A stretch of DNA of 32,000 nt from Nostoc punctiforme PCC 73102 (GTDB lineage Bacteria > Cyanobacteriota > Cyanobacteriia > Cyanobacteriales > Nostocaceae), in the NCBI RefSeq assembly GCF_000020025.1, contig NC_010628.1, positions 8,160,001 to 8,192,000 of the forward strand, in the 5' to 3' direction. The notes under the pieces are model-generated. The model searched no databases, was not told the origin of the DNA, and worked only from the letters and a program-made list of their open reading frames with translations. A program made the position numbers and the translations under genes. Shown here in pieces: positions 1-30,358 of the stretch (position 1 is the first letter of the stretch; the number at the start of each line of letters is the position of its first letter).

Positions 1-55
1 CATATTTTGATATGGCTTCATACTTTCAATCAGCAACGCCAATTTTTTAAAGTAC

Positions 56-4972: not shown

Positions 4973-4975
4973 TGC

Positions 4976-7006
4976 TTAAACACCTTGTTGATGATTACGG
5001 CGACGAGCTTGAGCTGCTTGTTGGCGTTGAGCGCGATTTTGCAGTTTGTTATGAGATGGTTGGCTGTTCTGGTTTGAATCCAAATATTTTGCTAAAGAGC
5101 CAATCGTTGAATACTGAAATAGCTTCACAGCAGGTAATTCAATACTAAGTTCCTGTTTGACTCGTGCAGCAACTTGCAGAATTGAGATTGAAGTTCCTCC
5201 CAAATCAAAGAAATTATCATCAATCCCAACGCGATCGATTTTGAGCAGTTCAGACAAAATACCTGCAAGCAAACGTTCTAAATCAGTTTGGGGAGCAATG
5301 TACGCTTGTTCGAGTTGCGGACGTTCTCTACTTGGTGCTGGCAATTTATGTCTATCTACTTTGCCATTTGCGGTTAGAGGCAGTGATTCTAACATTACAA
5401 ATGCTGATGGCACCATGTAATGAGGTAGGTGCTGCTGTAAAAAGCTACGTAAATTATTGTGTGTATATCTACTGTTATAGTGAGGAACAATATAAGCAGT
5501 CAACTGCTTTTCACCTGTTTCATCCTGACGAGCTAAAACAACAATTTCCCGAACATCAGGATGTTGTGCAATCTCCCGCTCAATTTCCCCTAGTTCAATT
5601 CGGAAACCGCGAATTTTTACCTGATTGTCAATCCGACCTAAGAACTCGATATTGCCATCTGGCAGATAACGAGCCAAATCTCCAGTTTTGTAAAGGCGGG
5701 TTGCTAAATTGCTATCAAATGAGTGAGAAATAAATTTTTCGGCAGTCAATTCTGGACGATTCAAATATCCTCTAGCTAATCCATCTCCAGCAATGTGCAA
5801 TTCGCCAATTTCTCCAATTGCTACTGTTTGGAAGTTGTTGTCTAATATATAAACTTGGGTATTAGCAATTGGGCGACCAATAGGAATAGATACACCTGGT
5901 TGCACTGGAGCTGTTATAAGATGGCAGCAGGTAAAAGTTGTATTCTCAGTTGGCCCATAACCATTAATTAGCCGACAGTTCTCTACTGTTTGGAGAAACT
6001 TCTGTACATGGGGAACAGATAAGACATCACCACCCGCTAAAAGTTGACGCAAAGATTTTAACGCATCAATTTTTTCATCCACTATGAGATGGAATAAGCC
6101 GGCTGTCAGCCAAAGAGTAGTGACTTGATATTGTTGAATAATCTGCCCTAATTCTTCTAATGATGGTGTATGAGGAGGGCAAATTACTAGTTGCCCACCG
6201 TTAAGTAAGCAACCCCAAATTTCAAAAGTTGAAGCATCGAAGGAAATAGGAGCAAGTTGCAGAATTATTTCTTCAGCAGTGAGGTGAGCATAATTAGTTT
6301 CTTTGACCAGCCTAACTACACCACGATGGATAACGCTAACCCCTTTGGGTGTACCTGTAGAACCTGATGTATACATGACATAAGCCAAGTTTTCAGCAGT
6401 GACGTTAGTGCTTAGGTTCTCTTTTTTATTTTGGGCGATTGTATGCCAATCTGCATCTAGGCAAATTACAAATGCTGTATGAGTAGGTAATTTAGCAACT
6501 AGGTCTTTTTGAGTTAATAGTATAGATACCTGAGTATCTAATAGCATAAAAGCTAAACGTTCTCGTGGATACCCTGGATCTAGCGGTACATAAGCTCCAC
6601 CTGCTTTGAGGATAGCTAAAAGTGCTACAACCATTTCTAAGGAGCGCTCTATGCAGATACCTACAAGAGTTTCTGCTTTTATACCTAGTGTTTGTAGATA
6701 TTGTGCCAGTTGATTAGCACGACTATTCAAATCTCTATAGGTGAGATGCTGATTATTAAATATTAATGCTACAGCATCAGGTGTTTTCTCAACCTGTGCT
6801 TCAAACAACTGATGAATACACGCTTGCTGAGGATAATCCGTTTGAGTCTTATTCCACTTGGTCAGTAGGTCTTTTTCGGATTCTTTCAAGATAGGTAATG
6901 TTAAATTATATCGTTCTAAGTTATTATCTGATGATAATGATGTTTGAGACTCAGTTACCAGAAATTGATTTTTATTTTTAGCTAATGAATCAGTTATTAC
7001 TTTCAT
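4976..7006 (-). CDS. NRPS loading protein: adenylation domain plus peptidyl carrier domain (A-PCP), with a Val-like specificity code
   Basis: 676-aa ORF. A-domain cores: LTYRDLN, YTSGSTGTPKG, FDAS, NGYGPTE, GELHIAGDGLARGY, YKTGDLARY, GRIDNQVKIRGFRIE, NGKVDR. Carrier motif: FFDLGGTSI. There is no condensation domain, so this is a starter module. Confidence 0.9.
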   Translation of the reverse strand: MKVITDSLAKNKNQFLVTESQTSLSSDNNLERYNLTLPILKESEKDLLTKWNKTQTDYPQQACIHQLFEAQVEKTPDAVALIFNNQHLTYRDLNSRANQLAQYLQTLGIKAETLVGICIERSLEMVVALLAILKAGGAYVPLDPGYPRERLAFMLLDTQVSILLTQKDLVAKLPTHTAFVICLDADWHTIAQNKKENLSTNVTAENLAYVMYTSGSTGTPKGVSVIHRGVVRLVKETNYAHLTAEEIILQLAPISFDASTFEIWGCLLNGGQLVICPPHTPSLEELGQIIQQYQVTTLWLTAGLFHLIVDEKIDALKSLRQLLAGGDVLSVPHVQKFLQTVENCRLINGYGPTENTTFTCCHLITAPVQPGVSIPIGRPIANTQVYILDNNFQTVAIGEIGELHIAGDGLARGYLNRPELTAEKFISHSFDSNLATRLYKTGDLARYLPDGNIEFLGRIDNQVKIRGFRIELGEIEREIAQHPDVREIVVLARQDETGEKQLTAYIVPHYNSRYTHNNLRSFLQQHLPHYMVPSAFVMLESLPLTANGKVDRHKLPAPSRERPQLEQAYIAPQTDLERLLAGILSELLKIDRVGIDDNFFDLGGTSISILQVAARVKQELSIELPAVKLFQYSTIGSLAKYLDSNQNSQPSHNKLQNRAQRQQAAQARRRNHQQGV

Positions 7007-8044: not shown

Positions 8045-8806
8045 TTAAATTACACTAGCTGAGAAAACGAAGTCATTTGCTGTTAGGCTAGTCGATGTAA
8101 CTCCAACCAATGAAGCCAACTCTGTATTTCCGGCTTTCACCAAAGTATCGCTACCCTGTTGCAATAGAGTTAAGGCACTAAATTGAGTAACACCAATACC
8201 GCCCAGCCCGATTTTATCAATGCCAACTGCAAAATCAGTTACAATGTTCTTGCTAGTTGGCAGACTGGCGTTAGCAATCCAGAATTGGTCAGCACCAGTA
8301 CCACCAGTTAAGCGATTACCGCCCTGTTGACCAGCAAATAGCACATCATCACCATCGCCACCAAACAGCGAATCATTCACACTGGAGAAGAGTTTGTCAT
8401 CTCCAGAACCACCGTAGAGGCGGTTATTGCTACCGTTACTCTTGAGGGTATCGTTACCTGAGCCACCGAAAGACAGTTGACGCGAACCTTCAACTACTGT
8501 GAGAGTATCAGCACCTGCGCCTCCGAACAAATTATTACTACCATTGGCTTCCACTACGGTAACTTCGTCATTACCATTGCCACCATCAGCACTAGTGTTA
8601 CTAGCAGGGCTATTTACGCCAATAAAAACTTGATCGTTACCATCTCCTGTGGACACTGAAGAGCCACTGCCGACTAGTACCGTATCTTCACCGTTACCAG
8701 TCACGATTGTGTTACCTTTAGTACCTTCTACAAAGTCTGCGCCGTCACCTGCAAATAAGGTTTGATTTGGCTTGAGGGTGACATCATCACTATTAGTAGA
8801 ACCAAA
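8045..8806 (-). repeat. Shared RTX/C-terminal cassette, copy 1 (3' end of the AP/NPP-like gene)
   Basis: Nucleotide-level paralogue of 11122-11883. I counted about 15 mismatches by eye in the first ~320 nt. It is more diverged from 17913-18677. The similarity continues past the stop codon into 7995-8044. Confidence 0.9.
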
Positions 8807-10717
8807 TTGAAGGTCTAGTGTTGTTAGTCCAACAGTGCGACCATCAAACCCTGCGGCTGTGAAGTACTGAGTATTGCCTACACTTTGAGAATCCAGAACT
8901 GTTGCTTGACCATTAGTAGTTTTTTCTGAAATCAATACTTCTTTAGTAGAGGGAACTACATCCGGGCCTCCCACCAGTGCTTCTGTAATGGCACGACCTT
9001 TCAAATCGCCATTACTTGGAATATCTAACCCTAAAATACGAGCAAGTGTAGGCGTGACATCGGCATTACTGACGGGCGCATAGTCCACATAACCTTGTTT
9101 AAAGTCTGGGCCAATAGCTTCCATGTTATTAAAGGTATCACCTCGACCAAAGCTGCCATGCATCCCCTGCCCTTGCTGCAAAGTTGTATCAGCAATTTCT
9201 ACCTGAGCTTGAGGGTTGTTTGGGTTGCTTGGGTCGGTGCTAAAGGTTTTGAAGTTGATAACTATAGATGGAACTGGTGTTTTAGCATCACCTTTTAGCC
9301 CGATCGCACTTAATGGTAAAGCACCTGGGATGTCTCCATAAGCATCGTCTACAAAAATCCCACTGATGTAGTCTTTTTGTGAAAGCAAATCCACTACCTG
9401 TTTAGCAAAGTCAGCATTGCCATTGGGCAGATAAATCAGGTCAGATCCACCATTAGCAGCTACAACTATCTTTGTACCTGGGTCAAGTTGGCCATTAATT
9501 ACCTCACCTGTACCACCAATTACACCATTCCCAGAAATAGGACGTTGACCTTGTGTGGCATCAACAGTCGCATACTGGATCTGGTTGAGGTCTGGGGGAA
9601 GGGTTGTAGGGTTAGGATCGTATAAGGGTAGACCTAGATCGTGAGCCAAATCAATTGCAACAAAACCTGCTGGTAGAAATCCCGGATTTACACCCGCATA
9701 AGTTTGGGTGGCAGCATAACTTGTAGTTTTTGTGCCTTGGCTATCAATAGCTTGTTTGCTGATGGTAGAAAAACCGTGGTCAGAAGTAATAAAGACATCA
9801 GTAGTTTTGTCTAAGCCTGTGCTTTTGAGATAGTCAAGAAGTTGCTTTAAATTATCATCAGCATTTTTGACCCCAGCTTTGGAGGTAGGGCCATTAATAC
9901 CTGGTGTTAAGGTGTTTAAGCTATCACCTTGATTATGTTGACTACCATCGGGATCTCTTGACCAGTAAACCAATGCGAATGGTTTACCATCTTCTTGAAA
10001 CTTGGGTAAAATTACTTTGGTTGTGGCATCTGCAAAGTATTGTTGTTGAGCAACATTAGCATTGAGAGTCCCTGGAGTTGTATTGTTACCAGCTGGCTGG
10101 ACTCGCGGTGTCGGTTTTACATCTAAACCAGCAGCTTGTAAGCGGTTGACAATATCTGGATCGAGTGGAACAGCAGAAGGTGAACCAGCAGGTGTAGTCG
10201 GCGGCGTTGCACCATTCGTACTATCATCAATAATAATTGTATCGGGAGTAGGAATATTACCTGTAATACCACCTTCTCGGTTAACTTGGGTAACATCTTG
10301 GATGGCAACTGGGCCTAGTTTACCAACTGCTGCTGTGTTGAAACCCTGCGATCGCGCGTAAGCTAAGAGTGACTCTTCATCTAAAAAGTTGTTACCGGGG
10401 AATTTTTCATCAATATCCCCCAAAACCGCATCATTTTCGATGAATGGCGTGACACTACCATTGGCATTAGGGCTAGGAAAACCAGTGTAGATAGTGTTGC
10501 TAAAGTCACCTGTATCACCAAGATAATGCCCCGTGGCGATCGCAGAAGCGTTCGGTGTGGTAAATGTCGGAAACAGTGAATGACTATTAGCGAAACTAAC
10601 TCCCTGCTGACGGACACTATATAAAGTTGGGGTATCAATTGAGTTTACAGAACCGTTACGCAATCCATCTGCAACAAAAATAATGACATTTCTACCGTTG
10701 TCGTTTGTATCAGCCAT
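8045..10717 (-). CDS. Alkaline-phosphatase-superfamily (nucleotide pyrophosphatase/phosphodiesterase-like) enzyme with C-terminal RTX calcium-binding repeats
   Basis: 890-aa ORF. AP-superfamily metal and nucleophile motifs: [36 protein letters not shown]. No N-terminal signal peptide. The last 253 aa are GGxGxD-type nonapeptide repeats plus a conserved tail. An AAGGAA Shine-Dalgarno-like sequence lies ~8 nt upstream of the ATG. Confidence 0.8.
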
Positions 10718-10927
10718 GCTTACTATTCCTTAAGTATTGTGAGCTACGATTAATCGCAGCAATTGTGTATCTGTATGAGCGATTAATTACGCTTAAGCCA
10801 AGCAAAAAATTCTTGGCTACAGAAACCTAAATAGTATTTGGCGACAAAATGCTTAGTGTCCACACAAAATAGGGCAGACAATTAAATGAACTTAACTTTG
10901 GTTACTGTCTCAAAAGATAGTTGTTCA

Positions 10928-10957
10928 ATGTTTAAGGAAAGTTATAAACAAGTTAAG
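10928..10957 (-). promoter_or_regulatory. Candidate Pho box (PhoB/SphR site): three 8-bp direct repeats in 11-bp phase
   Basis: The minus strand reads CTTAACTT-gtt-TATAACTT-tcc-TTAAACAT. Against the cyanobacterial consensus PyTTAAPyPy(T/A) the units score 8/8, 7/8 and 6/8. The site lies ~210-240 nt upstream of the ATG at 10717. Confidence 0.35.
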
Positions 10958-11121
10958 ATTTTGGACAAAAAGATTCCCGATTTCTTCAAGAAGTCGGGAA
11001 TCTAATCCTTTAGATAGAGAGCAAATCAAAATATGATTGCAATATCACTCTTTAGAGTTAGCAAAAGCGCTACAGCTTAATTCATTTTGAACATTGAATC
11101 TAAGCTGTAATCATTTTTCGG

Positions 11122-11883
11122 CTAAATGACACTAGCAGAAAAAACGAAATCATTTGCTGTGAGGCTAGTTGATGTAACTCCAACTAATGAAGCCAACTCT
11201 GTATTTCCGGCTTTCACCAAAGTATCGCTACCTTGTTGTAATAGAGTTAAGGCACTAAATTGAGTAACACCAATACCGCCCAGCCCGATTTTATCAATGC
11301 CAACTACAAAATCAGTCACAATGTTCTTGCTAGTTGGCAGATTGGCGTTAGCAATCCAGAATTGGTCAGCACCAGTACCACCAGTTAAGCGATTACCACC
11401 CTGTTGACCAGCAAATAGCACATCATCACCATCGCCACCAGACAAGGAATCATTGAAATTGGAGAAGAGTTTGTCATCGCCAGAACCACCGTAGAGACGG
11501 TTATTGCTACCGCCACTTCTGAGGGTGTCATTACCTGAGCCACCAAATAATGATTGACGAGAACCTTCAATTACAGTGAGGCTATCATCACCTGTACCGC
11601 CAAGTAAATTATTACTACCACTGGCTTCTACTACGGTAATAACATCATTACCATTGCCACCATCAGCACTGGTATTTTGAGCCGGGCCATTTTGACCAAT
11701 AAATATCTGATCGTTACCGTCTCCTGTGGATACTGAAGAGTCGCTGCCGGCTAGTACCGTGTCTTCACCGTTTCCGGTTTGGATTGTGTTCCCTTTAGTA
11801 CCCTCGACAAAATCTGCTCCGTCACCGGTGAATAGAGTTTGATTTGGTTGAACGGTAATATCATCGCTGGTAGTAGAGCCAAA
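11122..11883 (-). repeat. Shared RTX/C-terminal cassette, copy 2 (3' end of the 2068-aa gene)
   Basis: Same cassette as 8045-8806. It encodes FGST(N/T)SDD...[15 protein letters not shown]...QFWIANA(S/N)[11 protein letters not shown]...[11 protein letters not shown]. The 3' flank 11069-11121 is also similar to 7995-8044. Confidence 0.9.
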
Positions 11884-14800
11884 GTTAATTTCTTCAGTTT
11901 GAGGTTGACCTAAACCAGGAGCAAGGTTAAGGGGCTTCTCCAACTTCAGCAGTAGAATTTCATTGTTATCTATGACTGGATTTTGAGGATCATTTCCAGG
12001 ACGACCTGTAGAGAAGGGATAATTGTTGTCATTGGCTACCAAAATGGTATTTTTGTCAACAACTAAAACGTTTTCAATTGTGACAAATGGGAAGTCAAAG
12101 GTGGTTTTACCATCTCCATTCAGGTCGTTGGGGTCTTGGATGTTTAACAAGTCTGCAACTTCTTCTTTGGCTACATAACCATTAGAATCTGCTTTAGACA
12201 AGTCAATTTTGTAGATCCGCTTGAATTTAGCTGAGGCTCCTTGACCATTATCCCGTTCAATGACTAGGTACTCATTATCGTTAATGACTGCTAAATCGCC
12301 GATCGCATTTGCCGGATTATCCAATCTGTAGTACAGCTTTTTATCAGTGTACTTGTGGCTAGCTAAATCAAATTCGTTAATCCGCAAAGCACCAGGAGTA
12401 TCACCTTGAACTGTACCCTCTAGCAGCATATAGAGCTTGGTTTTGCTGGCGTTGATTGCTCCACCTTCAAAACCTTTTGAGCCACCCAAGTTAGCAAAGG
12501 CATCTCCTGAGAGAACATCTGGGTTTTGTGGCGATCGCACCACATTATACTGAGGATCGTCTCTGAGTTGATCTCGTACTTCATCGGCGATATCTGGGAA
12601 ATCTGAGAAGAGTGCATCTACCCCTAATTGATAGAACTGCTGAATTTCTAGCTCTAACTTGCCTTTGTAATCTGCTGCTAAATACTGATCTTCCGCACGG
12701 AAGGTATAGGGATGAACCTGTAAACCTGCGTTGTGAGCATCTTGAATTAAGGTTGAAGGAGGTAATGTTGTCTTGTCAGCATCATTAACTGCTCCATCCC
12801 CATTCACATCATCGGCTTTGCCATCGCCATTAGCATCAGTACCTTTGACGCTCACAATCATCCGCTTCCAAGGGCCAATGCCATCGGCATAAGTGGCAAC
12901 TTCAGCCAAGCCTTCTGGTGTTCGCAAGTCGCCATAAGTCCGAGTGTCACCACTGACTTTCAAATCATAAGGCTGACTTTCGATGATTTTGCCGTTGATA
13001 TCAATGTCACTGGCATCTAGCAATTGAACTAGGGGAATATCTACCCCAGCCGCAGGCATAATTACATCATGTAGTTCTTTGAGGTTGCTCACTTCAAAGG
13101 ACTGGATAAAGATGCGACTGGGGTCAGTAAAGTTATTTGCCTTCAGCGTATCAATTAGTAACTGGCTGATGTTTCTGTTTATTTTGTCTGTGGTGCCTAC
13201 ATAAGTAGCTTCATCTGCCGAATAGGTTGGATGCTTAGTTTCAGGATAGATGCCAATCTTTTTACCTGTATCGGCTTCTACTTGCTTAACCAAATCGATG
13301 ATTTCTGTGAGGGTAGGAATCTCAAATAGACCATCAAAGGACTGATCACGGAAAGGTAGACGTTCTTCGGCGCGTAAAGTCTTGATTTCAGCTAAAGTAA
13401 AGTCTTCTGCAAACCAACCTGTAATTGTGTTTCCATCTAAACTTACCGTTTTCTTGCGATCGGCAAACTCTGGATGCTTGTAAACATCTGTGGTTGTGTT
13501 GCTGAAATTGACAGTACCATCAGCGTTTAAAACTGCTAAAGCTGGCTCATGGCGAGCAATTAGCACACCATCTTTTGTAACTACCAAATCAGGCTCAATA
13601 AAGTCAGCGCCTCTTGCAATTGCTTGCTTATAAGACTCTAAGGTGTGTTCTGGACGATAACCACTTGCACCTCTGTGACCAATGACTTTAGGTGCTTCGC
13701 CATCTAAAGTTTTGAATCTGTCGGGTGTAGCAATGGGAGCCTCTAATAACTTACCACTGGCATCAAAATGCAACAGGTAAGGGCCAAACTCTTCTCCAAC
13801 CCAAATTGTCCCGTCTTTATCAAAGACGAATGACTCTACATCAAAGTCTGCACCAGTCAGTAATCTTCCAGTAGTTCCCTCATTCACAATTTGGAAAGGA
13901 ACTTTGTTGTTAGGGTCAGACAGTTGAATGTAATCTAAAACTTTAACGCTGCCGTCTCCATTTTCTGTTCCCTTAAAATTCGGGTCTAGACGATTGATTC
14001 GTAGCAGAAAATCTTCACTATTATCTTTGCTACCGTAACCGTTATCTGACAGGAAGTACAAAGAGTCGCTGTTAGCAAATTGAACACCGCTAAAGCCCTG
14101 TATTGGCTGTCCGGGGAAAGGCCCGGTTCTGCCATTCGCTGAAATGTCTGCACCGGAAACTGGCCCATCACTAAAGGTATCAGCAGGTAAAGAAGCAAAA
14201 CCAACTAACTCAACTTGGGGTACAGGTGTAGCAATTAATAGTTGACCACCCCGGCTGTGTTCACCATTGAGTACATTCAACTGGTTTAAATCTACATCAT
14301 TGAGTACACCGCTAGCTTGGACATCAAATAAGTAGGAACTGCGACCTAGTTGAGGATTAGAAGCGGCTTCGATAATACCAGAGCTTTCCCAAGAACCCAA
14401 GCCACTATTAAAGGCAGTACCTTGGGCATTCTGGTCTACTTCAAACAGAGGTTTGATGGTATCGGTAGCAATATCGTAAGACCAAACGCGATCATTACGT
14501 TGCTGGGCATCTATTATTTCTCCACCTAAACCTGCTGTATCTTCTTGGAGTAAGAGTTTGCCATTTTTATCAACAGTTACGTTGTCATAGCTTACTCCTG
14601 TATTTGGGCCACCAGTTAGTACCAATTCAAAGTTACTAATCTCTGCTGTTGGGTCACTTGCATTCAGGCTGAAGCGATAAGCTTTACCGTAAGGATTTTC
14701 AAAAGTGCCATTAGCCAGTTGATCCTCTGTTCCAGTGGTAACAAAGTAGAAAGTACCTGGATTGTTTGGGTCTTCCGTTATATCTTCCAGACGACGGAAG

Positions 14801-17328
14801 TTTGTAGAACGCAACACTCCATTGTCGCTACCATTTACCCAATCGCTGAGAGGTTTACCAGCATTGAGTAGCTGGTCGTCTCCACGGTCTTCTGTACCTT
14901 TGGTATCATAAACAGCCGAGCGATCGACCTTAGTCCAAGTAGCTTTTACTTTTGTACCTTCTGCTAAGGTTTCATTGTCATATCCTGTCACCTTGAGGAC
15001 GTACAAATCTCCGTCTTTCAGGCCATTCGGGTCTTCTGCTGTTTGATTACCGACGAACATATATAGTTCGCCATCACCATTGTCTTCGGTTGATAGTAGA
15101 ACTGTTTTACCTGAATTGGTGGCGCGATACTGAGATGCTGCTAGTACGTTTTCTTTGGAGAAGCGACCTAAACCATCTATAGATTGAGCAGTACCATCAG
15201 TTGTGACGGACCAACCCAAACTATCACTATTCTGCTCATCGGCGGTAAAGAATATTGGCCCACCTTCAAAACCATAAGTTGCTAAGTATGCTGAACAGAA
15301 TCGACCAAAGTTAATACCTGTTTGGGTTACAGCATCAGATGTAACTGTAATCTTGCCTAATTCATTACCTTTACTATCAACCGCATTCTCTATTAGGTCT
15401 TTACCACCTACTAGCTTCCAGTTCTTATCAAATTGCAATAGCGAAATTCTACCGCCTGTAATTTGTCCAGAAATTGTGCTGGAAAAATCTGTTTTAGTAG
15501 TGTCGCTCAATTCATGGTTGACGAATACATAGTAAGCATCGTCAGTCTCATAAATGCCCAAACCGTCAGGGATGCCTGTAAAAGCATACTTTTCAGTACC
15601 ACTGGGGACAAAGGAACCAAATTCTCCCTGTAGCAATGGGATTTCATCTCCAACTGTCAGGAGTTGATTCAGTCTGTAATTTGACCCATCGAGTGCTTTA
15701 ACATAAGCGGGATCGGTCGTTCTACCATCTTGAACAGGCTTTTGAGCAATTTGGGGAATTGCGGCTAAAAGTTGTCCACCTTCTGCATGGTTGCCGTTGA
15801 GAATATTCTGGTCTGGCGCACCTGCTACATTATTTTTGACGGTGTGAGCCTGTACATCAAACAAGTAAGCACCGCTACCTGGTAATGATTCGGAAGGAAT
15901 TTCGATAATGCCAGAACTTTCCCACTGCCCTTTGGCATTTGGGTCGTTGTATACAGTACCAGCAGCATCTTCATTCAAAGCAAACACACGAGCGATCGCT
16001 TTGGTAGTGGGGTCGAAAGACCAAACAGAAGCTTCCCGGTTTTCTGCTGCCATTACGTCGCCACCGTAGGAGGTTTGATCCTCTTGAAGCAAGATTTTGC
16101 CAGATTTATCAACTGTGATGTTGTCATAGCTGACACCTTTACCAGGCCCACCCGTTAACAACAGTTCAAAGTCACTGATTCCGGCTGTGGGGTCGGAGGT
16201 ATTTAATTTAAAGCGGTAGAGTCTGCCATAAGGGTCTTCTGCTTCGGCAGGATTATCGGTTGCTCCGGCTGCTGTCCCCTGACCTTGTTTATTTTTAGTG
16301 CCTGTGGTGACGAAATAGAAAGTTCCTGGATTATTTTGATCTTCGGCAAAATCTTCAATGCGCTGGAAGCTGGTTGAATTGTTGGCAGAATTAACGAAGG
16401 CTGTGAGATCGCTACCATCTACTTTTGGTGTACCGTCTGCATTGAAGATGATTGATTTATCAACCTTTGTCCAGGTTGCAGCTTTTTGGGTGCCTTCGCT
16501 AACTTGACCCTCGAATTCTGCACCATTGACTTTCAGAACGTATAAATCTCCGTTATTAAAGCCATTGGGGTCATCTGCGGTTTGTTGACCAACCCATAAA
16601 TACAGTTCGCCGTCATCATTATCTTCTGATACAAACAGCACTGTTTGATCGGAGTTCTCTGCCCGATATTGAGAAGCTGCAACTACGTTCTCTTTTCTAT
16701 AGCGACCTAAGCCGTCAAGCGCCTGTGCTGTACCATCTGGGGTTACAGCCCAACCCCGACTTGTATCACCACCTTCTTCAGGAGCAAAGTAGACGGGAAC
16801 CTCTGTACCACTAGCATCTACGAAACCGGATTGGGCTAGGTAAGATGAGCAGAAGCGATCGAAAGGACTAATGGTTGCTCCACTGGCATTGGTGTATAAA
16901 CCAGTTTGAGTATTTAAGGTATAAGTGCCAGTTGAGTCTACTATGGTGTCAATCAGGTTTTTACCGCCGATGACCTTCCAATTTTCATCAAAAACAAACA
17001 GCGACACCCTCGCACCAGTGATTTTTTCACCAGGAAATGTGCTGGAAATATCTGTTGTGACAGAGCCGCCTAGCTCATGATTCAACCATACATAGTTGTA
17101 GGTTTTTCCAGCGATCGTTACTTGGGTAGCACCTGTGCCATCAGGAATACCAGTGAAGGCATATTTTTCGGTGGCATCAACTTGGGGGGCTTCATCGATG
17201 TCAAACGTGCTAGTTAACAGGGGTACTTCATCCCCTACAGTCAATAAAGGTACGATTATTCTATTGTCAGAGTTATTTACTGTATCGACGTAAGCCGATG
17301 CTGTTGTTCTTCCGTTCTCAATAGCCAT
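11122..17328 (-). CDS. Giant multidomain phosphoesterase: two tandem PhoX/DUF839-like beta-propeller units, a phytase-like esterase domain interrupted by a glycerophosphodiester phosphodiesterase (GDPD) domain, and C-terminal RTX repeats
   Basis: 2068-aa ORF. Residues ~1-530 and ~535-1010 are paralogous: [17 protein letters not shown](S/A)YLA, GLGR(Y/F)xKENV, EDNx[18 protein letters not shown]. The phytase-like N-half contains [13 protein letters not shown]...GQPIQGFSG...LSDNGYG. GDPD motif [19 protein letters not shown]...[18 protein letters not shown] lies at ~12575-13695. The phytase-like C-half follows, then the 253-aa RTX cassette. Assigning the two N-terminal units to PhoX is from memory of motif patterns and is the weakest part of this call. 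Confidence 0.75.
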
Positions 17329-17851
17329 AATTAGAATGTTTTTTGGTGGGTATTTGGATTTAGCTGCATCACAAGCTATTCAAGTTCTCTCAACTGCATT
17401 ACTTGTGGTAAAAAGCAATCATTTTCTCACTCTATTAACCGGAATTATGGGAATATTTCAGAATTACATTACAAAAATATTGTTCGGTTCAGTCGAAAAT
17501 TGCTATTAACTCCGAGTCTTTTTTCACAGTTATTGAAAGCTAGAGTAATGATGTTCAAATGTTAACTACTAATCTGTGTTAGCTAGTAAGAGTGTGCAAC
17601 TAAATTCCGAGTTTAAGTTGGTCGATAGTAGTTATGAGAGAACTTGACCATTATTAGAGATGTTTCCATTGAAAGATTAAGAAAAGAATAAGTTAAACGG
17701 AAGAGATGATTAAAATACATTTAAATAAAAAATAATTTTTATTCACCCTTGCTGTATAATTCTTTTTAAGAGTTTTAAAGAGATGAAAGTTAATTTTTTT
17801 AGTTTGAATTTGCTAGCGATCGCATCAACTTTGCTGTCCAATAAATAGGCT

Positions 17852-17879
17852 GTAGGGACGTATAGCGGTACGTCCCTAC
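17852..17879. repeat. GTAG...CTAC palindromic hairpin repeat (Nostocales-type short intergenic repeat), possibly a terminator for the 1417-aa gene
   Basis: GTAGGGACGTA-tagcgg-TACGTCCCTAC, a perfect 11-bp stem, 33 nt downstream of the stop at 17913. A degenerate copy, GTAGGGGCGTA-tagatg-TACGTTCCTC, lies at 7812-7839. Confidence 0.6.
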
Positions 17880-17912
17880 TAAAGACTGTTCTATGAGAAG
17901 CTAGGCAACGAA

Positions 17913-18677
17913 TTAAGCCACGATACTAGCCGAGAAAACGAAATCATTTGCTGTGAGGTTAGTTGATGTAATGCCAACTAATGAAGCCAATTCTGTATTT
18001 CCAGCTTTCACTAAGGTGTCACTACCCTGTTGTAATAGCGTTAAACCACTAAACTGAGTAATACCAATACCGCCCAGCCCGATTTTGTCAATTCCGGCTG
18101 TAAAATCAGTAATGATGTTCTTGCTAGATGGCAGACTGGCGTTAGCAATCCAGAATTGGTCTGCACCAGCACCACCACTGAGGCGATTGCTACCTCCTTG
18201 ACCAGCAAATAGCACATCATCACCATCGCCACCAAATAGCGAATCATTGGTATTAGAAAAGATTTTGTCATCTCCAGAACCACCATACAGACGGTTATTG
18301 CTGCCGTTACTGGTGAGGGTGTCGTTACCTAGACCACCAAATAATGATTGGCGAGAACCTTCAATGACTGTGAGAGTATCATTACCTTCCGCCCCAAACA
18401 AATTATTATTACCATTGGCTTCCACTACGGTAATAACATCATCACCATTGCCACCATCAGCACTGATATTTTGAGCAGCGCCGTTTTGACCAATTACAAT
18501 TTGATCGTTACCATCTCCGGCAGAGACTGAAGAGTTACTACCTACGAGTACAGTGTCATCATCATTCCCAGCCTGGATTGTATTACCTTCAGTGCCCTCG
18601 ACAAAATCTGCTCCGTCACCTGCAAAGAATGTTTTTCCTGGCTGAACTGTAATATTATCGCTGTTGCTAGAGCCGAA
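17913..18677 (-). repeat. Shared RTX/C-terminal cassette, copy 3 (3' end of the 1417-aa gene)
   Basis: Same cassette and same order of repeats, but visibly more diverged at the nucleotide level than copies 1 and 2. It ends ...[12 protein letters not shown]. Confidence 0.85.
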
Positions 18678-21600
18678 ACTGCCGAGGAAAGTTGGCTTTA
18701 CACCTGTCAGGTTAACAGGATTGCGGGGATCGTAACTTGTGGTGTCAATATTTAGAAAATTGGGCAAGGCATTGGCTATATTCTCCCAAGGTACCAACTT
18801 AAAGTTAGAGTTGACGTTTTCACCATCAATGTTTTTGGCCGGTTCATTGGAGCCATCTTGAGTTACAAATAAACCAAATGGGAAGTTCGGCCCCAGTGGC
18901 ACGTTAATCACATCTGCACCGTCTGATTCTTGTACCCTGTCAATTGACCCATTGTTACCAACGGCAAAGTTACCCACATATTCGTTATTGCCTTCACGGG
19001 TGTAGGCAACAAAGGTACTATCGCCTTGGCTGGATGCTAGCAGATAACCTGTGCCGTTTTTGCCGTAGTAGATGGTCAACCCTTCTGCATCATCGGTAAG
19101 GTGAGAACCACCCTCAAAACGGACGCGATCGATCAGCTTGCCTGTTGTGCCACCGTCTGGTTCTGCCTGAAATTTCCAGATGCCCACATCTTCTTGGGCT
19201 ATGTAGAGAAAGCCGGTTTCTTGGTCAACGACCATACCCTCTGTTTGGGGAGAACGGTCTGCGGCTGTGGGTGAGGGGATGGTGAACTCCCGTACCAGTT
19301 CCGCTCCAATTTTGCCATTACCTTTGTCAATTAGCTTGAATTGAGCTATATCTCCAGTTTGGCGGCGACTGGTAAAAACATAGTAATCATTAGTTATAGG
19401 GCTACGGTATAAGGTAAGCCCGTAAGAACTGCGAGTTGATGCGGAATAGGGAGGTTCAAAAGGTGAGGCTTGGAAGATAGTGCCAATATTGCTATCGGTG
19501 ATATTTTCTAGGTAGTTACCGTCTATGCCAGGGTTGGGGTTAATTTTGAAAATTGCTAGTTTATCATTTTGGCGATCGCTAGCTACGGCAATATCAATAG
19601 ATTGATTGCCTAATTTAAAACCGTATTGCAGATCGATGTTGTTGTAGCGAATACCACCAGGATTAACTGTTTGCAATAAATTACCAGACAGGTCATAAAC
19701 CCGCAATCCAGCATTTTTGACTGAGGTTAGTACTAAACTATCAGCAGCATTTGTGGCGTTAACATAGATGGCTGGGTCATCAGCATCAGCATTCTGATCT
19801 ACAGCAGGTAATGCTGGATCTTCATCGTCAAATAAACCAGGACGAGTTTCTACTGTAGGTGCAGCAGTTGGAACCAAGTCTGCACCCAAGGTGAGGATTT
19901 GGGTATATTGGGTGCTACTAAAGTTGTTGTCACTCACCAGCACAATGGACTGACGACCATCTGCTAGTTTGGGACCGAAGGCAAGACCTTCTATATTATC
20001 CACTCCTGTAATCGGGTGATTTGCATCAGTGGGCAGATTGAGGTCAGTTAAATTCAACAGCAGACGCTTTTGGGCGGGTTTAATAGCTGCTAGTTGTTCA
20101 GCACTCAAACTATTGAGAGAATCGTAGAAACTAATGTCAGTCGCACCTTGCAAAGAAACTTCGTAGATTTTGATGGTATTGCCTACACCTTGGGCAAAGG
20201 AGCGTTCTAAGGCGAGGAAAGTGCCACGATTATCTATTGCCAATAAATCCGCCAAACCATTGTCAGCAGAGCCTGTGCTTGGGTTAGGTGCTTCGGGAAT
20301 GGCATCGGTGATGTAAAGGTATTCTTTTTCTGGTTGTCCAGTAACCAGATTATATTGCAGAATCCGAGAAGAGCTACCACTGGTGAATGAGGCTTTTAAT
20401 CCATCTTGGGAGAGGGCGTTTTCGGTGGCGGTAAATAGGGTTTTCTGGTCGGGTGTGATGGTGAGGCTTTCAAATGCCAGGTTATTGTATACACCTGATG
20501 TCTGCGTATCTCCGGCATCTACAATACCATTGTTGTTGGTATCTTCAACTACTGGCAGGAATTTGCTGGGGACAAAAAGCGATCCTACTTCTTGCCCTGT
20601 TGTAAGAGAAAATTCTTTAATAAAGGGATTGGTAACACGACCAGCAGTAGGATTAACTTCGCCTTCTGAAGAGATGAAGACTGTTCCATTGTTGCTTAAA
20701 GCAATGCCTTCAGGGTCAAGACTATTTAGTGGAAAAAATTTGCCGTTGGTATCTTTTAGGGTGGTGACATTGGTAAAAGTCACCCCGGAATCGGCAGCAG
20801 TGAAGGTATAAAAGCGGGCAGGAGCAACTTGAGAGCGATCGTCTGAGATGGCATAATAGCGGTTGTTAACAGCATCGTATGTGACACCAGATAATCCGCC
20901 CACTGGAGTTGGTGTGCCGTTGACATTTCCCGCCGCACCAGCAGGAATAAAGCCAGTAACGAAGGTAGTCTGCCTTTCAAAACTTACATTGGGAATGGTT
21001 TTACCTGCTTGAGTTGGTCTAGTTTGCACATCTGCGAACACCAAGCGATGGTCAGAACTGGGGAAGGGAAAAGTACCAACTGGGGAGAATGCCGGGTCAT
21101 TATTCAGCGGCCAAAAGACTCCTGAGTCGGTAATTGTCAGGTCAGCAGAGGGTAGCACGTAATCAGTCCGCAGGTTTCCGGGAGCTGTATCAGCAAAGTC
21201 TGCGGTATCAAAGCTAGGATTTCCTTTTTGGCTAACGTTTGCACCACCTTGTAAAGCCGCTTGTTGGGGACCGCCAAAACTGGTAGGAATGACATTAGTA
21301 TTGATCCCAGGATTTTGCAACAGTTGGCGAATAGCATTGTCATAACTATCACCATCTAATGGGTCAGCATTCTGATCGCCCATAATTACAAAGTCTGAGC
21401 CAGCAGCAATACCGCCTGTTTTACCCTGGTCATCATAAATGTAATTACCATTACCAGGGGTAATATAATCTGCCCAAAACCGAATTTCGTCATGGTTGCG
21501 CTTGCCGTTGCGGTCTTCCGCGCCATCAAAGGTCGGGGGTGTGGGGTGGCTAACAAGGGCGTGAATTGTTTTGCCGTTCACTTCGATGGGTACATCCCAG

Positions 21601-22166
21601 TGGCTTTTAGAGGAGAGGCGTAAAAGTGCCAGTTCCTCCTGAGAATACCAATCATTTGCCTGTGGCGTTGTGGGATCGTCGGGAAGCAAAGCATTGGGCA
21701 TATCCTTCCAGAGGAAGTTTTGGAAGGTGCGGATATTGGCGGTGTCAATGGGATATTTGGACAGCAGCAACATACCATATTGACCAGGGAAATCACCAAA
21801 TCCGAAGGCATCATCGCCATATCCCGATGTGCCTGGGGTTGTAACTACTGCGCTATTGTTGTTTAAGTCAAAGCCAGAGGCAATACCTGTGTTGGAGGGA
21901 GCGATATAGAAGTAGGGGTAGTCAACGGGAGTCGCACCGTTTTGACTTATGGCTAAATAATTTTGCTGGAATAGTTTAACTGCCTCTTGGGAGTAGTCAA
22001 ACTCATTAATTAGCAGCACATCCGGGTTGTTACGCTGGATAATTTCTGCAATAGCTTTTGCCTGAGCATTATTGGGGGTTGACAAATCGGCCGCTAATTG
22101 ACCTTGAGTACTGCGGTTTAGAGAAGCATTGAATTGGGAAAAGCGAATTGTATTATTAATTACCAT
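17913..22166 (-). CDS. Multidomain phosphoesterase: endonuclease/exonuclease/phosphatase (EEP) domain, phytase-like esterase domain, beta-propeller 3-phytase domain and C-terminal RTX repeats
   Basis: 1417-aa ORF. EEP motifs: [27 protein letters not shown] (~21010-22166). The phytase-like region contains GGLSGVTYD...YYAISDD. The beta-propeller phytase signature [11 protein letters not shown]...[12 protein letters not shown]...YNNIDL (~18700-19860) resembles Bacillus PhyC. A 254-aa RTX cassette ends the protein. No signal peptide. Confidence 0.8.
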
Positions 22167-22469: not shown

Positions 22470-22499
22470 AGATTAAGAAGTAGCTAGCAAAAAGTTAAG
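22470..22499 (-). promoter_or_regulatory. Candidate Pho-box half sites 22 bp apart
   Basis: The minus strand reads CTTAACTT-ttt-GCTAGCTA-ctt-CTTAATCT. The two outer units match PyTTAAPyPy(T/A) 8/8 and are spaced by two helical turns. The middle unit does not match. The site lies ~305-330 nt upstream of the ATG at 22166. Confidence 0.25.
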
Positions 22500-22830
22500 A
22501 TAAAAATAATTGTAGGGTTAGAGATGTTTTTTTCACAGCAATTATTCTCAGTTATATATCCCAATACGGTTGGGTTGAGCGTAAGCGTTACCCAAAAAAC
22601 CTTGATAATGTTGGGTTTCGTTCCTCAAACCAACCTACGTCTGATTATGTATATGTTTTTCTCTAATTAAGTTTCAAGTTGTTTGAAAATTGTTTCACTG
22701 TAACTTGAGGTGCTTTTAAATTCACCTTAACCACCATTAAATTTATCGGATAACTTAGAGAATTTAAAATTTTTGATACCAATAAGAGGACTTTTCAAAC
22801 ATCCTCTTAATGATAAATCTTTCACCCGAT

Positions 22831-22860
22831 ATAAAATAAGGTGGGCTGTTTACCCACCTT
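22831..22860 (-). terminator. Rho-independent terminator downstream of the COP23-like gene
   Basis: The minus strand forms stem AAGGTGGG / CCCACCTT (22838-22845 pairs with 22853-22860) with a 7-nt loop, followed by ATTTTAT (22831-22837). It lies ~95 nt after the stop codon. Confidence 0.55.
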
Positions 22861-22953
22861 AATGTAAATCTGTATTTTAAGATTACCGCGACAGAAAAAA
22901 CGATATCTTTTAGTTTTGGTGAAATTGTTCTGACATGTTGAGTAATTCAAGCA

Positions 22954-23730
22954 TTAGCGGAAATTACCAGGTTTTAAGCGAACAGAGTTAGGCTGAGACT
23001 GGCGACGAACTGCTACTCCATTTCGCAAATTGTTTCCAGTACCACCATCTTGGCGATCGAGGAAAGGTTTTAGATTAATGCCACTTCTAGATGAACTAAT
23101 CCGATTATTGCCACTCCCTAAAAGTGTACGTCCTAAATTATATAATTCATTCCCTCCACTACTGCGATCGCCATAAGTGTTAACGGCTATAGTTTGCTGT
23201 CCGTTGTCAGCAGTAGTCAAGTTCTGAAAAATACTATTGCGGATTACAACAGGATCTTTTCCACGTGGTACTGTCAGCACAATTCTACAGGTTGGGTTAG
23301 CTTCTGTTGTGACGCAGACAATATTTTCGTTATTCTCTACAGATGTCTGGAGTTCTTGTAAGCCATCTGGACGATAAAGTTCTAAGCGACTGGCAATTGT
23401 TGCACAACGTCTTTGTGCATCCCAACCACCGCCCAAAGCCGCAGGTGCTGCCCAAGGAAAGAATTGTCCTGGTTGACTTTGTGGCTGATACATAACGGTA
23501 GACTGACCGTTGTAAGTCTGGCAGGTAAACCGAGTTGTACCGTCAGATGAGGGTGAAGGGGGTATACCTGTTGATGTGTCTATTGGGACTGATGAGCCAC
23601 CTGATGGGACTGTTGGCACTACTACACCGTCGCCAGTAGAGTCATATTGTGCCATTGCTACCGAATTGCCGAGACACAAAGAGAAACCCAGAATACCCAA
23701 AGACATAAATCGCAGTAGTTGTGATGACAT
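22954..23730 (-). CDS. Secreted COP23-domain (circadian oscillating protein 23-like) protein
   Basis: 258-aa ORF. Signal peptide MSSQLLRFMSLGILGFSLCLGNSVAMA, then a Pro/Ser/Gly-rich linker. The core has the COP23-like pattern F-x-C...G-x-x-T-V-M...F-x-W...W-x-x-x-x-R-C-x-x-I-(S/A)-x-R...I-V-C...C...L-T-V-P. The family assignment is recalled from memory, not searched. Confidence 0.6.
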   Translation of the reverse strand: MSSQLLRFMSLGILGFSLCLGNSVAMAQYDSTGDGVVVPTVPSGGSSVPIDTSTGIPPSPSSDGTTRFTCQTYNGQSTVMYQPQSQPGQFFPWAAPAALGGGWDAQRRCATIASRLELYRPDGLQELQTSVENNENIVCVTTEANPTCRIVLTVPRGKDPVVIRNSIFQNLTTADNGQQTIAVNTYGDRSSGGNELYNLGRTLLGSGNNRISSSRSGINLKPFLDRQDGGTGNNLRNGVAVRRQSQPNSVRLKPGNFR

Positions 23731-24057: not shown

Positions 24058-24086
24058 ACAAAAAACCCCGGCGAAACTAACCGGGG
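24058..24086 (-). terminator. Rho-independent terminator for the Psb34-like gene
   Basis: The minus strand reads CCCCGG-ttagtttcg-CCGGGG followed by TTTTTTGTG (plus-strand hairpin 24066-24086, A-tract 24060-24065). Confidence 0.75.
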
Positions 24087-24141
24087 TAAGAGAGAGAGGT
24101 ACGAATGACGATGAGATACAGCGATACCGAAATTGAAAATC

Positions 24142-24312
24142 TTAGCTAACGCTAAAACTAATTAAAACTAAAGTTGTAACAATTAAAGTAGCAAAAAGAC
24201 CTTGTAAAACGTATTTACGTTGTTCCCAAATTGCTGGGTACTCGGCGTAGTAAACCTTGGGTTCAGCTGCGTAGTTATTGAGAATGCCGTCTTCATTTAC
24301 AGTGGTGTACAT
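24142..24312 (-). CDS. Small single-pass membrane protein, ssl1498/Psb34-family light-harvesting-like protein (not in the supplied ORF track, which omits ORFs under 60 aa)
   Basis: Hand translation gives MYTTVNEDGILNNYAAEPKVYYAEYPAIWEQRKYVLQGLFATLIVTTLVLISFSVS* (56 aa). The LNN(F/Y)AxEPKxY motif plus a C-terminal transmembrane helix matches my recollection of the Psb34 family. A purine-rich AGAAGAGA lies upstream of the ATG, and a strong terminator lies ~55 nt downstream. Confidence 0.6.
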   Translation of the reverse strand: MYTTVNEDGILNNYAAEPKVYYAEYPAIWEQRKYVLQGLFATLIVTTLVLISFSVS

Positions 24313-24793: not shown

Positions 24794-24844
24794 TGTCACT
24801 TAAAGGATATTGTGGCCGTTTTTAAAGCATAAAGTGGCCGCAGT
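24794..24844 (+). repeat. Terminal inverted repeat, tniQ-proximal end (two TnsB-site-like repeats)
   Basis: TGTCACTTAAAGGATATTGTGGCCGTTTTTAAAGCATAAAGTGGCCGCAGT. It equals the reverse complement of 30308-30358 except for G/C at position 34. Confidence 0.9.
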
Positions 24845-24878
24845 AGTAAAACCTTAGAGAAAGGCGAATAAATAAGAT

Positions 24879-30197: not shown

Positions 30198-30307
30198 ATT
30201 GGCCCCCAAGCTTTTAAAGCCGCAACAAGCTCTTACCACAAATCTAGGCTTTCGCCAGTTAAACAGTCTTTTATTGATATAAATATTTATACTTACCAGT
30301 TCAGATG

Positions 30308-30358
30308 ACTGCGGCCACTTTATGGTTTAAAAACGGCCACAATATCCTTTAAGTGACA
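30308..30358 (-). repeat. Terminal inverted repeat, tnsAB-proximal end of copy 1
   Basis: Its reverse complement reads TGTCACTTAAAGGATATTGTGGCCGTTTTTAAACCATAAAGTGGCCGCAGT. Confidence 0.9.

Follow-up and report, generated by a model that had tools for sequence, protein, structure and literature searches.

Three predicted leaderless RTX phosphoesterases encoded behind Pho-box-like arrays in Nostoc punctiforme PCC 73102

Organization of the locus

We analyzed a stretch of 32,000 nucleotides from Nostoc punctiforme PCC 73102 (NC_010628.1, positions 8,160,001 to 8,192,000; the whole stretch is referred to as the window), which carries three consecutive genes for large proteins that combine predicted phosphoesterase domains with a C-terminal RTX module (Table 1). 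An earlier note, drawn up from the DNA alone, had described three co-oriented open reading frames (ORFs) of 890, 2068 and 1417 aa at positions 8045–22166, here designated genes 1, 2 and 3. These coordinates are exact, and all three ORFs lie on the minus strand. Transcription runs from 22166 to 8045, with gene 3 first, followed by gene 2 and gene 1. Domains were called at the Pfam gathering cut-offs, and every family of genes 1–3 scored above them, including all those that the note had named (PF01663, PF05787, PF03009, PF13449, PF03372, PF02333, and PF00353). The proteins are acidic (pI 4.21, 4.30, and 4.22 for genes 1, 2, and 3) and contain 0, 2, and 0 cysteines, respectively; the sole two cysteines among the 4375 residues of the three proteins, C160 and C678, are both found in the gene 2 protein.

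The intergenic gaps measure 584 bp (gene 3/gene 2) and 404 bp (gene 2/gene 1). A terminator-like hairpin follows gene 1, and none could be clearly recognized downstream of genes 3 and 2. In view of these gaps, and of the conserved Pho-box block that each gene has of its own, a single operon is considered unlikely, and each of the three appears to form a transcription unit by itself. The remaining large ORFs of the window encode COP23, a Tn7-like TniQ/TniB/TnsB set and a non-ribosomal peptide synthetase/polyketide synthase (NRPS/PKS) pair. The cluster had been called an island, which in the mobile sense was not borne out: the order COP23–gene 3–gene 2 is kept across species, and COP23 separates the cluster from the Tn7-like element. 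The cluster is a conserved chromosomal locus.

Table 1. Features of the phosphoesterase cluster in the window, in order of transcription.
Feature	Position	Strand	Basis
Second Pho-box-like array upstream of gene 3, opposite orientation	22704..22744	+	22/24, best score of the window
Array upstream of gene 3, -304 to -355	22470..22521	-	20-21/24; CTTAACTT and CTTAATCT units 22 bp apart
Gene 3, 1417 aa: EEP, Phytase-like, beta-propeller phytase, RTX module	17913..22166	-	ORF, Pfam
Gene 3 EEP domain, aa 30-373	21048..22079	-	PF03372, 110 bits; motifs INEF, GDQNAD, SDH
Gene 3 Phytase-like domain, aa 420-749	19920..20909	-	PF13449, 299 bits, full profile 1-284
Gene 3 beta-propeller phytase domain, aa 788-1148	18723..19805	-	PF02333, 288 bits
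Gene 3 RTX/secretion module, aa 1164-1417	17916..18677	-	80-82% protein identity to the other two
Array upstream of gene 2, -346 to -408	17674..17736	-	Six 11-bp-phased units including TTTAATCA, CTTAATCT
Gene 2, 2068 aa: two PhoX-like modules, GDPD-split Phytase-like domain, RTX module	11122..17328	-	ORF, Pfam
Gene 2 PhoX-like beta-propeller module 1, aa 1-525	15754..17328	-	PF05787, 62.0 bits scanned alone, cut-off 24
Gene 2 PhoX-like module 2, aa 526-1030	14239..15753	-	PF05787, 60.9 bits scanned alone, cut-off 24
Gene 2 Phytase-like N-terminal part, profile 1-112	13708..14109	-	PF13449, 83.7 bits
Gene 2 GDPD domain, aa 1218-1579	12592..13677	-	PF03009, 145 bits
Gene 2 Phytase-like C-terminal part, profile 117-284	12019..12519	-	PF13449, 122 bits
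Gene 2 RTX/secretion module, aa 1811-2068	11125..11898	-	PF00353, serralysin match
Canonical triple Pho box upstream of gene 1, -211 to -240	10928..10957	-	21/24; CTTAACTT-gtt-TATAACTT-tcc-TTAAACAT
Gene 1, 890 aa: NPP/alkaline-phosphatase-superfamily core, RTX module	8045..10717	-	ORF, Pfam
Gene 1 NPP-type catalytic core, aa 1-635	8813..10717	-	PF01663, 103 bits
Gene 1 RTX/secretion module, aa 636-890	8048..8812	-	87% protein identity to gene 2 copy
Terminator-like GC-rich hairpin, 63 nt past gene 1 stop codon	7960..7982	-	10-bp stem, 7 GC pairs

Shared RTX module and absence of signal peptides

As the note had stated, all three proteins end in Ca-binding GGxGxD repeats. These belong to one shared module of approximately 255 aa, which is 80–87% identical at the protein level and 83–88% at the DNA level among the three genes, contains six GGxGxDxUx nonapeptides in each protein, and scores 38.8, 33.0, and 43.6 bits against the RTX family PF00353 (cut-off 23) across the three proteins. 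Its matches to PDB sequences cover the entire C-terminal beta-roll domain of the serralysin-type proteases, classical substrates of type I secretion. The last 60 residues are near-identical in the three proteins (with a tail such as DFVFSASVI), and may act as the secretion signal.

The absence of a Sec or Tat signal peptide also held: the N-termini are hydrophilic, the ORFs are maximal, and neither an N-terminal hydrophobic stretch nor an RR motif was found in the three proteins. We compared the gene 1 protein with its 120 best homologues, 28 of which carry RTX repeats. The RTX carriers start 7–29 residues before the catalytic core (7–13 residues in 22 of the 27 that were scored) and nearly all are devoid of a hydrophobic segment, whereas most of the 92 homologues without RTX repeats have an N-terminal extension of 30–70 residues that is usually hydrophobic. 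RTX tails and signal peptides thus appear to be largely mutually exclusive in the family of gene 1, suggesting that the RTX tail takes the place of the signal peptide.

This anatomy resembles that of the serralysin- and lipase-type RTX substrates (AprA, PrtC, and the Serratia protease; 1sat, 1k7i, 6ixx), with which the three proteins share the C-terminal GGxGxDxUx beta-roll followed by a predicted, uncleaved C-terminal signal; they are likewise leaderless, acidic and Cys-poor. The cargo differs, consisting of 1–5 phosphoesterase modules of up to approximately 1800 aa instead of a single metalloprotease or lipase. In addition, the transporter is not adjacent here, and its ABC partner in relatives carries extra cyclic nucleotide (cNMP)-binding and C39-like N-terminal domains. 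Large, acidic, Ca-binding, Cys-poor proteins that lack a signal peptide have been taken as substrates of type I secretion systems (T1SS) in cyanobacterial exoproteomes (PMC11424642), and a genome survey in which cyanobacteria proved RTX-rich predicted RTX phosphatases, phytases and phosphodiesterases (PMC3034196).

Type I secretion genes in related loci

In agreement with the earlier note, no gene for an ATP-binding cassette (ABC) transporter, a membrane fusion protein (MFP) or TolC was found among the nine ORFs of at least 150 aa in the window. The ORFs at its high-coordinate side were considered as transporters and are the Tn7-like TniQ, TniB, and TnsB. Synteny was counted in 83 related loci, within the flanks covered. 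In 23 of these loci, the gene that immediately follows the orthologous cluster encodes a HlyB-type ABC protein of approximately 1000 aa; 19 of the 23 also contain a HlyD adaptor, and in five loci gene 3, gene 2, gene 1, the ABC gene and the adaptor gene follow each other in that order. In locus L056, the ABC protein consists of cNMP-binding, C39-like, ABC_membrane and ABC_tran domains and matches type_I_sec_HlyB (TIGR01846; 739 bits, cut-off 725.6); the 527-aa HlyD protein that follows matches type_I_hlyD (TIGR01843; 210.5 bits, cut-off 208.7).

In the window and in 19 other loci, the position of the T1SS pair is held by an A-PCP/KS-AT-ACP-aminotransferase block, and no locus has the T1SS pair and the NRPS/PKS block together within 10 kb. 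The cluster commonly adjoins a T1SS pair, from which it appears to have been separated in the lineage of the window. As the pair adjoins the cluster in relatives and the NRPS/PKS block is found there instead in the window, the puzzle of the missing transporter that the note had raised is largely resolved. The block itself (56–7006, minus strand) encodes two proteins, first A-PCP (676 aa) and then KS-AT-ACP-aminotransferase (1638 aa), and looks like the start of an NRPS/PKS pathway of the beta-amino-fatty-acid lipopeptide type.

Predicted catalytic domains

The NPP-type core of gene 1 contains residues D17, T54, D257, H261, D313, H314, and H520, which are invariant in an alignment of 28 homologues; these seven positions correspond to the ligands of the bimetal site and the Thr nucleophile, and align with the motifs of ENPP4. 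A profile search with the core matched ENPP4, 5, 6, and 7 and the Xanthomonas (Xac) NPP, and Foldseek comparison of its AlphaFold2 (AF2) model (pLDDT 75.5, pTM 0.83) matched NPP1, NPP3, NPP6, NPP7, and PafA at E ~ 1e-11 to 1e-10. The core of approximately 635 aa is a conserved unit that occurs in thousands of bacterial proteins. Gene 1 therefore has all seven ligand and nucleophile positions and the matching fold of the NPP/PafA branch (Xac NPP 2gsn, ENPP1–7, PafA 5tj3), but differs from it in the length of the conserved core, of which some 300 residues lie outside Pfam coverage, in an identity of only 11–16% to the solved members, and in the RTX tail in place of a signal peptide. Its specificity as a monoesterase or diesterase cannot be read from the sequence.

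The N-terminal half of the gene 2 protein consists of two PhoX-like modules of approximately 520 aa each, tandem duplicates with 50.6% identity over 532 aa (blastp). The AF2 model of module 1 (aa 1–525; pLDDT 91, pTM 0.91) has PhoX of Pseudomonas fluorescens (4a9v) as its top Foldseek match (E = 1.7e-16, TM 0.61/0.55, identity 13%), whereas the next matches are generic propellers at approximately 1e-5. Each module contains one cysteine, in a conserved RFCS motif (C160 in module 1, C678 in module 2). This cysteine is kept in the sampled phosphatase-linked homologues and replaced by serine in the subtilisin-RTX proteins P0041 and P0044 and in the 5'-nucleotidase-type protein P0040. Many Asp/Glu columns of the module alignment are also invariant. 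The Fe/Ca center of PhoX is ligated by a cysteine together with carboxylates, and canonical PhoX is exported by the Tat route, which transports proteins in the folded state. The gene 2 modules differ from canonical PhoX in that neither an RR motif nor an N-terminal signal for Tat was found in the gene 2 protein, in their tandem duplication and in their fusion to further enzymes, and the predicted export route of the gene 2 protein differs from that of PhoX. Together, module 1 being closest in fold to 4a9v, the model supports a fold relationship of the gene 2 modules to PhoX; their catalytic equivalence is plausible but unproven.

The PhoX-like modules are followed by a Phytase-like domain (PF13449, 195 bits as a whole) into which a GDPD domain is inserted. 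The GDPD motifs GHRG, EPD (E-x-D), and PEH are present, and residues 1208–1581 align with residues 26–351 of E. coli GlpQ (1ydy/1t8q, E ~ 8e-30). As the score against the NCBIfam GlpQ equivalog is 186.8 bits and the cut-off of 254 is not reached, the domain is best described as a member of the family and not as a GlpQ equivalog. Compared to the periplasmic, Ca-dependent glycerophosphodiesterase GlpQ of E. coli, the gene 2 domain aligns end to end and has the HRG, E-x-D and H motifs, but it is nested in PF13449 and its predicted export depends on a C-terminal signal and not on Sec. A similar arrangement may exist elsewhere: in two homologues of PhoX-like module 1, P0031 and P0033 (the latter from Lyngbya), a stretch of approximately 360–380 residues interrupts the propeller near residue 300, and precomputed Pfam annotation places a GDPD domain in both proteins. 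This may represent a second, independent nesting of GDPD in a propeller besides that in PF13449.

The EEP domain of gene 3 retains the NE, D-x-N, and SDH motifs; no solved homologue was found by sequence, and the ExeM/NucH model NF033681 gave no match to gene 3 at E <= 0.01, indicating that this EEP domain does not belong to the NucH/ExeM family. For the PF13449 domain of gene 3 a solved homologue was likewise not found by sequence. In the beta-propeller phytase domain, residues 789–1151 cover the whole enzyme of Bacillus (1poo, E = 2.8e-72), with matches to 1poo, 3amr, and 1cvm at E ~ 1e-72 over residues 19–350. The Ca-dependent, extracellular beta-propeller phytase of Bacillus (PhyC/TS-Phy; 1poo, 3amr), to which the gene 3 module aligns over its full length, is a Sec-secreted enzyme of approximately 380 aa, whereas the phytase of gene 3 is an internal module of a 1417-aa RTX protein.

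Pho-box-like arrays upstream of genes 1–3

The Pho box recognized by SphR is a promoter element of three or more tandem repeats of 8 bp that resemble CTTAACCT and are spaced by 3-bp linkers (PMC1906773). The window was searched on both strands for three YTTAAYYW units phased at 11 bp, with a maximum score of 24. All eight sites that score at least 20/24 fall upstream of genes 1–3, and no such site was found in three control AT-rich intergenic regions. When the upstream regions were shuffled with preservation of dinucleotides, none of 200 shuffles reached the counts for gene 3 and gene 2; for gene 1 the fraction was 0.025–0.08.

In alignments of 17–21 species the arrays at 22470–22521, 17674–17736, and 10928–10957 are the best-conserved upstream blocks. 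The array of gene 3 is conserved in 20 Nostoc loci and has a perfect CTTAACCT at the first position in most relatives; that of gene 2 is the most conserved block across 21 loci, and the triple Pho box of gene 1 is nearly invariant in 17 loci, including Tolypothrix. Each gene therefore appears to lie behind a Pho-dependent promoter of its own. Because each is preceded by its own predicted SphR/PhoB-type Pho box, the three genes are probably switched on by phosphate starvation.

A Pho-box-like element was also observed 200–500 nt upstream of the ABC gene in L056, L063, L065, L067, L069, and other related loci (e.g., CTTAACCA-agt-AATAATCT-att-CTCAATTT, 19–21/24). It is conserved, but weaker than the sites of the cluster, and hints that Pho control may extend to the T1SS exporter.

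Tandem CTTAACCT-type Pho boxes have been described for Synechocystis phoA-nucH, Anabaena alr0276 (nucH) and all0275 (GDPD), and the atypical PhoA of Synechococcus PCC 7942 (PMC1906773). Genes 1–3 resemble these large, extracellular Pho-regulon exoenzymes of cyanobacteria, as they likewise encode large phosphoesterases behind Pho-box-like arrays. They differ with respect to nucH, since the EEP domain of gene 3 has no ExeM/NucH match and a separate RTX gene of the NucH type lies upstream of the cluster in locus L001. All0275 and several phosphatases were recovered in the exoproteome of Anabaena 7120 (PMC4390845). In Nodularia, nsp6490, described as a “GDPD (phytase domain)” protein, was strongly induced by phosphate limitation, with log2 values of 4.6 at 7 days and 5.5 at 14 days (PMC9846622; see also PMC3610870). 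This description, of a GDPD with a phytase-like domain in a Nostocales genome, is that of gene 2 as well, but the papers mention neither PhoX-like modules nor an RTX tail. Two recent reviews on phosphorus acquisition in cyanobacteria make no mention of phytases or RTX enzymes.

Distribution and modularity

The locus is conserved in approximately 80 species representatives of Nostoc and relatives (Nostocales), and the proteins of the window are 93–95% identical to those of Nostoc sp. C117, the Peltigera cyanobiont 210A and similar strains. Its content varies. Of 82 gene 2 orthologues, 11 encode two PhoX-like modules, 3 encode a single one and 68 lack the module. In gene 3, a second PF13449 domain is found in 45 loci and absent from 10, the window among them. 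Within the flanks covered, 33 of the 83 related loci were found to contain gene 1. Extra genes in relatives encode NucH-RTX, PhoD-RTX, alkaline-phosphatase-RTX or FG-GAP/DUF4114 proteins. The stacking of different esterases on single polypeptides had been regarded as unusual, which does not apply to this lineage: Nostoc and its relatives share the locus in a conserved, modular form, and annotation of the proteins already exists. The observation itself is confirmed, but it concerns a gene family that is common in this group.

An example of this variation is locus L001 from a 95%-identical relative, where positions 1–3815 contain a fourth RTX gene before gene 3, with choice-of-anchor I and ExeM/NucH-type nuclease domains; its score against NF033681 is 194 bits, below the cut-off of 300. 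Gene 3 of this locus encodes 1818 aa and has the second PF13449 domain. In the window, the gene immediately before gene 3 is COP23.

The RTX cassettes of paralogues within a genome are 77–90% identical at the DNA level and those of orthologues 79–94%, and the catalytic parts of close Nostoc orthologues are approximately 93–96% identical at the protein level. This pattern suggests patchy gene conversion among the RTX cassettes, whose similarity may also provide a possible handle for domain shuffling.

Predicted function of the cluster

Genes 1–3 join two known kinds of protein, the RTX-tagged secreted hydrolases and the Pho-regulon exoenzymes of cyanobacteria. We consider it probable that they encode Pho-regulated, Ca-dependent phosphoesterases that leave the cell by type I secretion and scavenge organic phosphorus. 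The proteins would be exported unfolded and in one step by a HlyB-type ABC exporter with a HlyD adaptor, the genes for which lie beside the cluster in many relatives and are presumed to lie elsewhere in this genome, and a TolC-like outer-membrane channel would complete the exporter. Extracellular Ca2+ would then fold the RTX module and the Ca-dependent catalytic domains, and the enzymes would free phosphate from organic phosphorus, whether dissolved or bound to the matrix. The substrates are likely to be glycerophosphodiesters for the GDPD domain, phytate for the beta-propeller phytase, nucleic-acid or lipid-headgroup esters for the EEP domain, and nucleotide or other phosphodiesters, or monoesters, for the NPP core; those of the PhoX-like propellers would probably be monoesters.

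Several observations weigh against scavenging by exported, Pho-regulated enzymes. The exporter genes are missing from the window, and the Pho-box-like arrays sit 210–410 nt upstream of the start codons. The name “Phytase-like” of PF13449 is a prediction rather than an assay result. nsp6490 and All0275 are likened to gene 2 by their published domain descriptions only, and the cluster look-ups that could link them to gene 2 returned only Trichormus, Aphanizomenon and Tolypothrix names. The remaining points concern the PhoX-like modules. Their PF05787 matches span only profile positions ~224–454 of 515, about half of the profile, and no solved PhoX in the PDB was matched by sequence, either with the module alone or with an 18-sequence profile, even at E <= 10. 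Moreover, the module is also found at the N-terminus of subtilisin-RTX proteins (P0041–P0045), and may for that reason be no phosphatase in every context.

These last points bear on the possibility, doubtful in our view, that the PhoX-like and perhaps the PF13449 modules are non-catalytic propellers, serving in substrate or matrix binding or as an aid to folding or export, and that only the GDPD, NPP, phytase and EEP domains are enzymatic. The partial Pfam match, the failure to find a solved PhoX by sequence even with a profile, and the Foldseek identity of just 13% fit this explanation, as do the dispensability of the module, which is missing from 68 of 82 gene 2 orthologues, and its position at the head of subtilisin-RTX proteins. 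It is harder to reconcile with PhoX being by far the best structural match (1.7e-16, versus ~1e-5 for generic propellers), with the placement of the only two cysteines in 4375 residues, one per module at RFCS with serine in protease-linked versions, and with the many invariant Asp/Glu residues. The PhoX-like assignment, which had been the weakest of the earlier note, hence stood as to family and fold, with Pfam scores above the cut-off and PhoX 4a9v as the best fold match, but the match is partial and has no counterpart in the PDB at the sequence level.

The destination of the enzymes allows for another, improbable, alternative to free extracellular phosphoesterases, in which export is the same but the proteins would form a phosphatase layer bound to the cells, attached to their surface, the sheath or the exopolysaccharide matrix. 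The thick matrix that surrounds Nostoc colonies would suit such a layer. The RTX proteins of cyanobacteria include many components of the surface or S-layer (PMC3034196), and the FG-GAP/DUF4114 and Calx-beta neighbors in relatives are typical of surface proteins. However, the three proteins contain no SLH domain, anchor or lipobox, and phosphatases and the GDPD protein were recovered from the culture medium of Anabaena (PMC4390845).

A role as interaction factors, that is, as RTX effectors of the phospholipase, sphingomyelinase or nuclease type directed against hosts or competitors and not as nutritional enzymes, is very improbable. The strain is close to lichen cyanobionts, the EEP and NPP folds include sphingomyelinases (e.g., the ENPP7 match), and RTX proteins are classically toxins; but Pho-box-like arrays are present upstream of all three genes, the family is kept in free-living planktonic Dolichospermum, Aphanizomenon and Gloeotrichia, the phytase and GlpQ-type domains are nutritional, and the domain scans revealed no pore-forming or acylation modules. 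Equally remote is the explanation that the proteins are not T1SS substrates but cytoplasmic, or released by lysis or in vesicles, with the RTX repeats as a mere Ca-dependent stabilizer: the lack of a transporter gene in the window and the non-classical release discussed for cyanobacteria (PMC11424642) are outweighed by the near-exclusion of signal peptides by RTX tails among homologues, the tight synteny with HlyB/HlyD genes in relatives and the acidic, Cys-poor nature of the proteins. Ca-dependent domains would, in addition, be inactive at cytoplasmic Ca2+ levels.

Starting from exported, Pho-regulated phosphoesterases, a more far-reaching version can be put forward tentatively, although we would not expect it to hold in full. 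The PhoX-like propellers would be active, deeply divergent PhoX enzymes, the Fe/Ca cofactor of which would have to assemble outside the cell because an RTX substrate is exported unfolded. The locus would be a recombination-driven array, in which a shared 3' RTX cassette allows phosphoesterase modules to be swapped among genes that feed a dedicated, possibly Pho-regulated, cNMP-gated T1SS.

Phosphorus is often limiting for Nostocales in blooms, soil crusts, and lichen and plant symbioses. If the proposed function is correct, one conserved locus would supply a Ca-dependent extracellular toolkit for phosphodiesters, phytate and monoesters that varies by species, is apparently under Pho control and is tied to a type I secretion system. 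Its genes could then serve as markers for organic-phosphorus use in blooms and symbioses, and the proteins would offer a natural example of a switch from signal peptide to RTX export and a test case for the maturation of a PhoX-type metal center after unfolded export. As the family is already annotated, current concepts are unchanged and the value of these findings is incremental.

Neighboring elements

COP23 (circadian oscillating protein; 22954–23730, minus strand), the N-terminus of which resembles a signal peptide, is conserved as the neighbor upstream of gene 3 in 31 related loci; between it and the gene 3 promoter there is a terminator-like hairpin (22837–22861). Between COP23 and the transposon we identified the photosynthesis-regulatory small RNA PsrR1 (24061–24143, minus strand; RF02701, 56.5 bits, gathering score 42).

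The Tn7-like element (24794–30358) consists of tniQ, a tniB/tnsC-like AAA gene and a tnsB-like transposase gene, and has inverted ends of 51 nt. A second, inverted copy that is 100% identical starts 223 nt further on (30582–32000) and continues past the end of the window, such that the two copies form a perfect inverted repeat of 1419 nt. This inverted pair represents either a head-to-head twin insertion or an assembly artefact.

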